Origin: Podarcis pityusensis
Lineage: Eukaryota
DNA: 64,000 nt
Reading direction: 5' to 3' (one strand)
NCBI GenBank assembly: GCA_964106645.2
Contig: OZ067054.1
Part shown: piece after piece, positions 34,801-40,800 of the stretch
Layout of the letters: the number at the start of each line of letters is the position of its first letter
Numbering within the stretch: position 1 is the stretch's first letter
The notes under the pieces: generated by a model
What the model saw: only the letters and a program-made list of their open reading frames with translations
Database searches by the model: none
Told to the model about the DNA's origin: nothing
Position numbers and translations under genes: made by a program

Positions 34801-37800
34801 AAGCACAATTTTGCAGTTTAGACCGCCTTGCTTTTATTTGCAAATGAAACACCTTGGATATTTCAGCCCTTGCCAGTCTTACTTTGTATGCTGTTACAGC
34901 AGAGCTTTCCAAACATTTCATGTTGGTACACACTTTTTAGACATGCATCATTTCACGACACAGGAATTCAGTTTTACTAGCAAACCAGAGATTAAACTAA
35001 CCCCTTTCCACCCTGGAAGGAGTGCAGGGAGAGTTCATGCAACACAGAGCTTGGAAAGCTCTGCTCTACAGAAACAGCCCTGATCTGCCCCTGAATCTTA
35101 CTGAGCACCCTAAATAGGTGCAGATTTGGGGAACTGAATATTATGGACCCCCCTTCACAATTTCATAGATGAGCTGCACATCTATCTATCTTGAAGCACA
35201 ATAGAGCTTGGCCTAATTTTTGCAACTTATTCAAAAGTCTGCAGCCTTGCCTCAAAGTGTGGAGTCACACCAGGCAGGAGATTGTGGGCTGGCATGATGG
35301 CTCACAAGCCAGGTGGCAGGAAGCTGCCCATGGGGACTCGCATGCCATCATCGCCACCACCAACACAGCAGATGCCAATACAGGAAACCAGCAGTGCAGA
35401 CACAGCAGCATTTTGACACAGCAGCCTGCACAGAGAACTGCACGAGCTCTGGCCTTTGCAGCAACAGGGCTGTGACCTCCTAAGTAAAGTAACTTGGCAA
35501 AATGGGCACTCTAGGCAGGTGGCTCGTGAGCAGCAATTGCTAACCCACAACCTGAGTCGAGACAGCAGCAGGAGAGAAGGGGTGTTGCTTTTTTCTGTCC
35601 TGCACAGCTTAAGACACACCCTGTCCACTTCCACTCACAATTCCATGAAGAGAACCGTGCTGGGAGAGTCTTCAAGCCAGCAGGAAGCGACTGGGCGCTT
35701 AAAATTTGTCTTTTTGTTGGCCTTGGGCATGTTTCTGCCCCTCCCATTTCCTCTTCTGCATTGCCAACTGAATCGGCAACTGGGAACTGGGATCAACCCC
35801 CACCTCCAGACAGCCTTTTTTTTTGTTACCACACCTATTCTTAGTTGTACGGCGTAGTAGTCAAGTAAGCTGTACTCAGAGTATGCCTACTGAAATCAAG
35901 GAACCTAATGGAGTGATAAGTCACTTTGAATCACCAATTATTAGTTACTGTTTTTACAAAAGCAACTCAAAGTGGCTTATCACATCAATCACATAACATT
36001 CACACAAAAATCAGCATAAAACAAAACAGAAAAATCTAAAACACATCCATGTTTTTAAAAGGCAGGGTCAAAACAATTTCAATGGGTCTACTCTGAGAAA
36101 AATTTAGCTGAGAACCTGAGAAAAGCAGTTTGAAGTTGGGAGGGGGCAGAGTAAGGAGGATGCCAGCACCTCCCAGCTCAACATCACTCAGTCCCAGAAA
36201 CAACCGCTGAGATTTTTACGCAATGCATGGGTTGCTGTTACAGAATGGAAGCTGAATACTTGGGGGGGGTGTGGTGTGTGTGTCCTGGATTCAGTTTGCA
36301 TTGTTGATTACTGCCACTCCCAACTTTGAGGAGGAGAATTTACTAGTTCTGGACAGAGCCAGGCTCCTTGTAAGTCTACGTTTGCAGTTTGGTTGGCCTT
36401 CTTGCTCTTTGATGTAGACTGAGGCTGGACCCTGCAGTGCCTTTCATCAAGGAATGCAGCCATCGTATAAGACTCCTGGCCACCATCATCATGCACAGGC
36501 TTGGCAACCTGACTTCTTACAGTAACGCCCTTATGGTGGGAGCCTGTGGGCCTCCACCCACAACAGCCCTAGCCAGCCTGGCCAATGCTCACGGATGATG
36601 GGAGTTGTAGTCCAACACCTGGGGGAGGGGCACAGGTTCCACATCTTTATATGGACCTGACAAATGCTATCTGGGAACTCCAGCTACAGCAGAAGTCCGT
36701 TGCCCATGCCTTGACAGAACTGCAGAATATGCTACGGGGATGGGTCATTCTGCTACAAACTACTTGGAGGTTTGCTCAATCTTGCTCAAGGTGCTGACTT
36801 ATAAAGTCTTGTTTGGTTTTAGACCAGCATCTATCTCTGGGAGCATCTTCCATCAGAGGGAAAACAAGATCTGCCGGGGGCTCTTGTGGAGTTCAGCCTT
36901 TGCCATGGAAAAGGCTTTTATTTTTATATTTTTTAAAAAAGCTAAACAAAGATCCTGAGTGTTCTTTCAGGCCATGACCCAAGCCACCACTGCCGTTTCC
37001 CTTTCACCTTGAGTTTTTGTAGCAGTTGCTTTTAAAACTGGATGTGAATGACCCATCTTCCAACACAATTAAATAATGACTCTGCCTCCGACTGCAAAGC
37101 ATCTATTTTATTTATATATTAGACTTATATACCACCACCACCCCCGTTATCAAAAGATCTCAGGGAGGTTCACAACATCTAAGCAGATCATTCTTTAACA
37201 AACCCATTGGATCTGCTTGGACCTTATATCACTTCAACGGGAAAGAGGCCAACCACACACAGAAAAATCTCAAGCCCAAGGAACCTGTTGTGGGCCTCAA
37301 TTATTTTGGAATTACAATCCAAACTTGCTGGAGCTGATGGGAAATGGCAGTCCAACACCACTTGGAGGGGCCACAAGTTTCCCACACCTGCTCTCCACCA
37401 TCAGATGCCTGCCCTCCCCTGTTACAGTTGCTAGGAGTTCATTTTAGAAAGGAATAATAGAACTGTAGATTTGGAAGGGATCCCAAGGGTGATCTAGTCT
37501 CGTCCAACCCCCTGCAATGCAGGAATCTCGACCAAAGCATCCAAGGCAGGCGGCTACCCAACCTCTGCTTAAAAATCTCCAAGGAAGGAGAATCCACCAC
37601 TTCCCAAGGGAGTCCATTCCACTGTCAAAAGAGAAAAGGACCCAACAGGGGGTGGGTCATCCACTGTACAGCAAGCCTGACCCTGCTCTGCCAGGCCCTC
37701 CTTACCTTCGTCAATTTCTGTGACATGGCACTCTTCTAGGGCCCCCGAGGGGCTGTGCACCTTGGCATCAATCACACCTTTGGCCCCGTTCAAGCTGACG

Positions 37801-40800
37801 GCAAACGAGGCTGGCTGGTTCACCTTTAACCCTGACTCCTGGAAGCACACAGCACGTTAGGCAGCAGAAAGGACAGAGCGGGCAATGGCATCAAGCTTTG
37901 GCTACCACAACCCCCCCCCTCCTCACCCCCTTGAGGACAAGGCAGAAGGTCACTTACCTGAGAGCCAGGTGGCTTAGAGAGGGAGAGCTGCCCCAGGAAA
38001 CTGGGCCGCAGTGCAAGAGGCAGGCAGGCAAGCAGCAACAGGGGAGGATTTGTTAGGCTAGTACCCTGAAAGAGGGAGGCTGGCAGTTTTCAAAAGGATG
38101 GCAGCAAGATTGGCAGAGGCATGGGCCAGGGAAGCTCTCCATCTTTAAGCCCCAGCAGCCAAAAGGAGCAGGGGACTGTTAGCAGCCTTTAAACGAGACA
38201 CGAGAAAAACCCCAGAGCAGATCCCTAGATGGCCAGCAGGGCTGACACAGTGGCTGTCCCAAGGCTGGCACAAGGCACCCACAGAATCATAAAATTGTGG
38301 GGTTGGAAGGGACCACAAGGGTCCAACCCCTGCACCCATCTTGTCCTAAGTTGTTTAATCACCTTATCTTGGCAAAAACCTCAGTCACACCACACCCCCA
38401 GATCAGTACAGATTGGGAGCACACCCTCGCCCCAATCTGCGTCTCCTCCCGCCCCACTTTCAGGATCCAAGTCTCTTGGATCAAGGAACAGCCAGCCCAG
38501 GAGAGCAACAGTGCCAACTCAATCCAGCCAGCAGGGGGAGCAAATGGGCGGTTTCTCCCAGTGCCTCACCTGAAGACTAGAAACAGTGAGTCGACGGGCA
38601 TCATCTGAGGTGGAGGTGGCAGGTACCACAAAGGGACTGTCTGGGATGTGCTCATCATTGAACTTCACAGAAACCTCGTAGTCTCCTGCAAGCAAAGAGG
38701 GAGGAAGGAAGAGGAATTAAGGATGCTTATCCAAAAGGCTCAGTCAATGGAGGACTGGAAATCCAGACATGGGGAGTTTTTTCTTGTTTGAGCATGAGAT
38801 CAGCACCTGAAGCCTTGCTCTGCATCAGGCTGGCAGGTATTTGGGGCTTTTCAGCAGTGGCCATGCACATCTTTGCAAATACATACGGCTACATCACCAA
38901 TTATTTTTAAGGAAACACTCTGAAGATTTCTTTATTATTATTATTCAGTCTGCATTTAGTTAATAGAATGCGTAAAAAGAAATATTAGATGTTGCCACTG
39001 CCAATTTTAATTGAATGATTTTTTAATTTAATGATGTTTGTAATTATTGTATTTTCTATCAAATTATCAGTTTGACGTGCAGATGGGTCCCCATATGGAA
39101 CAATTACCACATATTTACTATTTGGGTAATGTCAGCATGAAGTTGCATTTCATATTTAACAGTTTTCTTGAAATTACATATTTCAACAACTGAACTGCCA
39201 AAAATGGGAGTGAGAGATGCTCCAAAAACATTTTGAGTGATGCTTTCTGTATCTTAAAAGTTTTCAGTAGACTTCAAAATTCACACCTCTAGCATGTAGA
39301 AGTTCTTCTAAAACACCATACTACCTCAAGCCCCAATCCTTAATTAATACATTGTGTTTGATAAGGATGGAGGTTATAATAATGCATCTCCCAAATACAA
39401 TCTGTTGAAAGCAGCCCTCCCCTCCCTACCTTCAATAAAAAGCATTTGAGATCTAGCTGAGATTCCCTCCCCTACTTGCAAACTGTGGGGCAGCCAGTTA
39501 CCCAGCTTGCGTTCCAGATGGCCGCTTCCAAAGATCTGCCAGCCTCATTAGCAAACAGAAAGCTCTTTAGAGCACTGGATCCATTCCAGGTAGTTGGCAA
39601 CACGATGCCTGTTGGATTCCAGAAGTTGGCTGCCTGCAGATTCCCTGAGTGGCTTATGGGAGCCGTTCCCAAGAGAAGGAGCTAGAACAAGCTCTGCAGA
39701 GAGGGAGGGAGGCCTGCCTCTGGAGCTTCTCCAGCAGCCACCCGTTGGACCAGACCTCGGTTTCCGAGTTGCAACATACAACTTCCATCTGCCTTGTGCT
39801 CAACATATGATTCTTTGAATCGGATGTTGGAACACGATCCTTACTTTACTATTGCTTAAGGCAGATCTACAACCTGTGGAGCAAAGAGCAGCAGGGATCT
39901 CCCTCCACTGAGCCTTACACCAGCCATATTTTCTTTCTCTCTAATACCTGTGTCTTCTGGCTCCTATCGCTCTGCCTAGAAACAGCCGGAAGCCTTGCAA
40001 TCTCCAGGCCTTTGACCTGGCCATTGAAAACCTAGATGGATTGTTTTTAGATCACCTCTCCACAGTGACGTGTAAGGCTGCCCTTCTTGGCTCTTGCATT
40101 CTCTACTACCTTCACCCCCCCCCTCAGATTCAGTTAAATTGGGAGCTATCTACATCCATTTAACACCACATTTGTATACCACCTCTCAGCTGAAACAAGG
40201 GCCATTCCACAAGCTTGGTTTACAAGGGGGGAAAGTATGAAAGCCAGTGCAAATGCCAAGAGTGAGGATAGCCATGATGGCAGTGGCGGGGGTTCTCCAG
40301 AAGCTGCCGGACTACAACTCCCATCAGCCCTAGGGAGCATAGCCAAAGGTCATGGATGATGGGAGCTGTGGTCCAGCAACATCTGGAGGGCACCATGTTG
40401 GCTACCCCACTCAGTAATGGAATTGGAACACAATATTGAAAACCAAGAAGAAAAGAGTTAAACCCTTCAACATCGAATTAAATGTCGGATGTAATAAAAA
40501 CGGTGGCCACTTCCCCCTGGAAACCATCAAGGACAGGGCCAGTCTAGCCTCCCTAGGGAGGGGATTCCAGAACCAGGGACCTGCCCCAGAAAAGGCCGTT
40601 TTGCCCTGACACCAAACATCCCCTCTTTTGGTGGAGAGAACCTAGTCCTTCACCCTGTAGTGCTGATAAAGCCTGTTTTCAGTCCACACACCCCTCATCT
40701 TGGCGGCCTCTTCTCCTAAAGCTGAAGGCCAACACTGAAAGCTGGAGATGGCAGAGCCCAACATTTTGATCTCTCACTAAGTATTCCCTAATCCTCATGC

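Follow-up and report, generated by a model that had tools for sequence, protein, structure and literature searches.

A likely filamin-A Q/R editing-complementary sequence in an intron of the lizard Podarcis pityusensis

The FLNA locus and its Q/R exon

We analyzed a window of 64,000 nucleotides from Podarcis pityusensis (GCA_964106645.2, contig OZ067054.1) that carries filamin coding exons on its minus strand. On protein identity, we assign the host gene to squamate FLNA rather than FLNB or FLNC, with identities of 98–100% to Varanus FLNA over the 4 exons that it covers and, in the same 4 exons, 89–98% to tuatara, against 66–80% to Pogona FLNC and 66–77% to gecko FLNB. The coding exon at 38570–38685 (−), sixth counted from the 3' end and presumably exon 43 in the 48-exon numbering, ends in a CAG codon (38570–38572, −) that aligned to Q2341, residue 2341 of the 2647-aa sheep FLNA. 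The A of this codon, A38571, lies at position −2 from the splice donor, and the exon is followed by a host intron of 731 nt (37839–38569, −) and by the next FLNA coding exon (37706–37838, −). In mouse papers, the Q/R exon is called exon 42 (PMC6166124, PMC7462079).

The exonic part of the pairing described below holds 5 consecutive T-ending codons, the longest run of this kind in 1032 codons, with a chance of about 0.001 (by arithmetic) of such a run at a given place. At 38586–38567 (−), the lizard is identical at 20 of 20 positions to a mouse guide sequence that spans the end of the exon (PMC9685389); a mouse primer lying in the exon that follows matched at 19 of 21, so that exon identity to mouse is non-specific. 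Two AATAAA hexamers at approximately 30967–30962 and 30757–30752 (−), about 0.7 and 0.9 kb past the FLNA stop, are possible alternative poly(A) sites.

Editing of the FLNA Q/R codon has been reported from birds to mammals, with ADAR2 performing most of it in mouse (PMC3866242), and it sets vascular smooth-muscle tone in mice (PMC6166124). The mouse editing-complementary sequence (ECS) lies within a 228-bp part of intron 42 whose deletion abolishes editing (PMC6166124). The Q/R-equivalent site of zebrafish flna is edited at 18.5% according to the supplement of PMC4053846, and a whiptail lizard is selectively edited at Gabra3 (PMC3141254). Our search of the openly accessible literature returned no paper that reports editing of a filamin in any lizard or other reptile. 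Among 305 stored proteins, the Q/R motif was found in 203, with 198 carrying Q and 5 carrying R. All 5 R proteins belong to a chicken cluster of 14 members, 8 of which cover the site (5 R, 3 Q); edited transcripts leave such mixes in databases, and this one agrees with the editing reported for birds and mammals. Chicken filamin-A (P0240, NP_989905.1) has R at the Q/R position, apparently derived from an edited cDNA. A Thamnophis filamin-C-like protein (P0076) has an extra GQ directly after the equivalent Q, as a tandem acceptor at that junction might produce.

Predicted pairing across the exon end

A sequence-only reading of this DNA had proposed that the minus-strand segments 38587–38550 and 38211–38175 pair with each other, and its coordinates, strand, and pair counts were all reproduced. 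The 5' arm (38550–38587, −) comprises the last 18 nt of the exon and intron positions +1 to +20, covering the donor CAG/GUGAGG, and forms 34 pairs with the 3' arm (38175–38211, −), including 26 Watson-Crick and 8 G:U pairs, with 3 mismatches and 1 bulged base (U38560), an energy of −38.7 kcal/mol, and a span of 338 nt between the arms. Within this duplex, A38571 pairs with U38191 (A:U) beside a C:A mismatch. An edited A that is A:U-paired and preceded by a 5' C stands in a suboptimal editing context, so editing levels at A38571 could be low. A38566 (−), at intron +4, is also paired in the duplex; mouse Flnb pre-mRNA undergoes editing at its counterpart +4 A (PMC6161736).

The minimum-energy fold of the region contains the duplex. 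When 12,792 sense-strand windows across the 64 kb were compared as partners of the 38-nt arm, 38211–38175 came out best (−38.8 kcal/mol vs −36.7 for the next), leaving a thin margin of about 2 kcal/mol over the second-best. With a fixed −20/+20 probe applied to 22 donors, each compared with 12 random stretches, the FLNA Q/R donor reached z −5.3 and the runner-up −3.1, making it the clearest outlier of the donors tested in a comparison where the position of 1 donor is possibly off by 12 nt and the targets were sampled in finer steps than the background. The donor at 37705 (−), with z −3.1, has a better-than-background partner at about +45, which is probably a local G-rich hairpin. Folding of the whole region beat shuffles only mildly (z −1.9), with 2 of 100 shuffles being equally good. 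At 37 °C, 4 of the 5 folding windows gave 6 sampled duplex pairs probabilities of 0.78–1.0; in the longest folding window, which adds upstream intron, a rival fold won and the same 6 pairs fell to 0.19–0.24, recovering to 0.69–0.80 at 25 °C. The list from a plain inverted-repeat search held a 13-nt piece of the duplex and not the full duplex, and an Rfam search of 37600–38600 gave 2 weak matches, both far below the gathering threshold.

It had also been argued that the strand asymmetry of the G:U pairs indicates selection at the RNA level. The asymmetry itself is real, with 8 G:U pairs on the sense strand and an energy of −20.3 kcal/mol for the antisense version, but chance duplexes reach similar values: the 39 best chance duplexes had a mean of 4.5 G:U pairs, 3 of them had at least 8, and 1 had an equally large strand gap. 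The argument is largely circular, stemming for the most part from the way in which the duplex was found, and we dropped it as independent evidence.

The duplex continues into an inner irregular stem with its 5' arm at 38491–38541 (−) and its 3' arm at 38217–38269 (−), comprising 38 pairs at P ≥ 0.5. Of 3197 windows, 2 paired equally well with the inner-stem arm, in a count from which the partner's own place had not been removed. This candidate editing-inducer stem has the structure expected of an inducer, being a long stable stem that adjoins the edited duplex beyond an internal loop. The whole element is thus predicted to be 1 irregular hairpin of about 72 pairs (34 + 38) with an apical loop of about 220 nt, in which 2 local hairpins (38408–38440, −, −16.5 kcal/mol; 38464–38482, −, −8.9 kcal/mol) and a repeat fragment are placed. 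The sequence-only reading had assigned the shortening of the loop to hairpins at 38409–38439 and 38464–38482; both do fold, but we rejected them as the main loop closers, with the inner stem doing most of the closing. Its repeat scrap in the loop was borne out by an interspersed fragment at 38278–38323, which is presumably CR1-like and recurs 6 times elsewhere in the window at 77–83%.

Mammalian FLNA is listed with a conserved adjacent inducer stem of 105 nt and 36 bp at a distance of 38 nt from the Q/R site (PMC5654063, Table 1). The inner stem resembles it in that its 38 predicted pairs begin 30 nt from the site. The lizard arms, however, are split by a long loop, and sequence homology to the mammalian stem is only hinted at. 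The inducer function of the mammalian FLNA stem is itself a prediction in PMC5654063, and the lizard stem is a candidate by analogy.

Conservation of the intronic arms

We read conservation of the intron from database gene calls that run through the donor, comprising 15 proteins in 6 clusters from few lineages, with 7 of these being bird-type and 8 mammal-type. All 15 read-through tails start with VRHREKPP, and the lizard intron frame reads VRHWEKPP. Over intron positions +1 to +24, 23 of 24 lizard bases were compatible with the read-through peptides, 14 of them fixed by the genetic code, and the sole incompatible base was U38560, which is predicted to be unpaired at P 0.95.

The bird tails end by +132, short of the ECS, and gave no match to it; the ECS comparison draws on mammal-type calls. 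Two peptide stretches in 2 frames, GVFLVS and FFSCL, which stem from different sequences, matched the lizard frames at 38213–38195; here, 15 of 19 bases are fixed, all equal to those of the lizard, and 19 of 19 are compatible. Against 85 control stretches, the ECS match was equalled by none for P0269 and by 1 for P0268; for P0267, it tied with the best control, and the top match was the adjoining 38228–38211, a segment agreeing with the mammal-type read-through peptide at 6 of 6 positions in 1 lineage and 4 of 6 in others. In the distal ECS, KGFEQ placed on 38190–38176 agreed at 13 of 15 bases after manual alignment over a 2-nt indel, and the 2 differences swap one pair for another, shifting an internal loop. 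Lizard-mammal differences in the arms thus fall on the bulge or shift a loop, with no double-sided change among the peptide comparisons. A HMMER search of the frame crossing the ECS against 1.84 billion representatives returned only 3 long repetitive proteins, which we took as irrelevant. Read in this way from translated gene calls, both intronic arms are conserved between lizard and mammals.

The same calls place a known edited site in the lizard intron. Human and mouse FLNA have another edited A in this intron, at a distance of 213 nt from that of the Q/R codon (PMC4053846), with a second supplement placing the mouse sites 212 nt apart; according to the supplement of Pinto et al. (PMC4053846), this intronic site is conserved in mouse, dog, and opossum and not in chicken or zebrafish. 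Three mammal-type calls have a stop codon that begins at +211, and the next base, +212, lies 213 nt from the −2 A, which makes A38190 (−) the likely lizard equivalent. A38190 stands in a UAA context, mismatched to C38572, and is predicted to be a second editing site, with the mapping resting on peptide positions.

The proposal that this is the squamate FLNA Q/R ECS is therefore well supported by the codon at 2341, by both conserved intronic arms, and by the known intronic site that maps into the element. Taking these together, we regard it as very likely that 38211–38175 is the lizard orthologue of the FLNA Q/R ECS and that ADAR2 edits A38571 by way of the hairpin, changing Q2341 to R. Compared with the mouse and human Q2341R duplex (PMC6166124, PMC4053846, PMC7462079), the lizard shares the gene, the codon, and the −2 position, as well as the sequence of the exon end and of +1 to +24, the ECS core, the equivalent A on the ECS side, and a donor covered by the duplex. 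The 2 differ by a 2-nt indel and a shifted 2 × 2 loop, and editing is observed in mouse and human whereas it is predicted in the lizard. The partner of the edited A lies at +379 in the lizard and at about +211 in mammals, with the lizard apex being about 170 nt longer than the mammalian loop, a gain that takes in the 2 small hairpins and the repeat fragment.

The ECS could be orthologous but little used in the lizard, surviving as a relic or as a low-level substrate that the added loop length and the repeat insertion have weakened, and the rival fold that won in 1 of 5 folding windows is in line with that account. The inner stem, however, would keep the arms close, and lizard and mammals agree at all 15 fixed bases of the ECS and all 14 of the 5' arm, which would need continuing selection; we consider little use of the ECS very unlikely.

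Editing and splicing of the host intron

For an ECS that serves editing, the preferred reading, the proposed course is as follows. The intronic segment 38211–38175 would fold back on the exon end and donor of the FLNA pre-mRNA, with the 34-pair duplex continuing into the 38-pair inner stem, which, judging from mammals, would help to load ADAR2. ADAR2, taken to be the enzyme on the same grounds, would act before intron removal and convert A38571 to inosine, so that the codon would be read as CGG, Arg, in repeat 22. As in mammals, A38190 on the opposite strand may be edited too, and the highest editing levels would be expected in smooth-muscle-rich tissue.

In a simple donor matrix, replacing the −2 base by G took the score from 7.0 down to 4.9 bits. 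Inosine at −2 would weaken the donor in this way, and edited transcripts would therefore splice more slowly. For mouse, the literature already links editing with splicing: intron 42 is retained in edited Flna (PMC7462079), Flna splices about twofold better without ADAR2 (PMC10984384), and FLNB behaves alike, with editing-linked reduced splicing (PMC6161736). The FLNB Q/R site (PMC6161736) and the GRIA2 R/G site likewise have an ADAR2 site at −2 of a donor within an exon-intron duplex and show splicing reduced after editing (PMC7462079), although these are other genes and the lizard locus is FLNA by protein identity. The sequence-only reading had the duplex couple editing to splicing by masking the 5' splice site. 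Coverage of the donor was upheld, with positions −2 to +6 all predicted to be paired; the masking part fared less well, as the stem is intact in ADAR2 knockouts in which splicing is raised, making editing or ADAR2 action a likelier link than structural masking alone.

The same evidence bears on the view that the stem is kept mainly for splicing control, hiding the donor from U1, with editing as a by-product. Such a role would fit the fully paired donor, the strong alternative donor downstream described below, and the poorer splicing of edited mouse Flna (PMC7462079, PMC10984384). It fits poorly with the rise in splicing on ADAR2 loss with an intact stem (PMC10984384) and with mouse ECS deletion, which is reported to leave FLNA mRNA and protein levels normal and yet to give a vascular phenotype with raised smooth-muscle contraction (PMC6166124). 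Further, transcription reaches the donor about 360 nt ahead of the ECS, which would let U1 bind first, and we hold a mainly donor-hiding role to be very improbable. Least probable of all is that the complementarity arose by chance in a G+U-rich intron, for although the margin over the next window is thin, the whole-region z modest, and the G:U count attainable by chance, the best partner in 64 kb falls in the right intron, a known edited intronic site maps into it, and the read-through conservation of both arms to mammals largely refutes it.

Beyond the editing hairpin, which we continue to read as the substrate for Q/R editing, the same intron holds a second stem downstream of the ECS, with its 5' arm at 38129–38151 (−) and its 3' arm at 37971–37993 (−). 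It is a 23-nt inverted repeat with 87% complementarity, 17 pairs at P ≥ 0.94, and an energy of −33.4 kcal/mol against −25.3 for the next best in the window, enclosing a candidate acceptor and overlapping a candidate exon. This candidate exon (37958–38065, −) is 108 nt long, in frame, and open over 36 aa, and it ends at a consensus donor, CAG/GTAAGT (37952–37960, −, with the intron side from 37957), 119 nt from the acceptor of the host intron. In 32 kb of sense strand, 3 sites scored at least 8 bits; the donor at 37957 was the highest of them and alone lay away from a known exon end, and it could serve as an alternative donor. No insertion at the candidate-exon junction was found in the retrieved FLNA proteins, among which the squamate Varanus and Gekko fragments do not extend to the site; among the 203 stored filamins with the motif, 2 had an insertion, both FLNC-type models. 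Among the literature matches listed, none dealt with this candidate exon or donor in the FLNA intron.

We also considered a 2-stem switch, in which ADAR2 editing would weaken the Q/R donor and splicing would move to 37957, with the second stem gating the choice; we think this unlikely. If it were true, the exon would either be extended into a stop codon, leading to decay or to a filamin cut in repeat 22 that ends before the dimerisation end, or the 108-nt exon would put 36 residues into repeat 22, and the mouse-type "intron retention" would be a regulated alternative splice in squamates.

Returning to the orthologous Q/R ECS, a known mechanism is extended to a new lineage, with the lizard likely recoding the same Gln to Arg as mouse, human, and chicken. 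With the ECS, its edited A, and a stem like the inducer present in a lizard, the architecture as a whole would go back to the ancestor of amniotes. In the longest folding window, the predicted pairing is about 0.2 at 37 °C and rises to about 0.8 when the temperature is lowered to 25 °C, and the lizard coordinates given here let temperature-dependent recoding be probed in an ectotherm.
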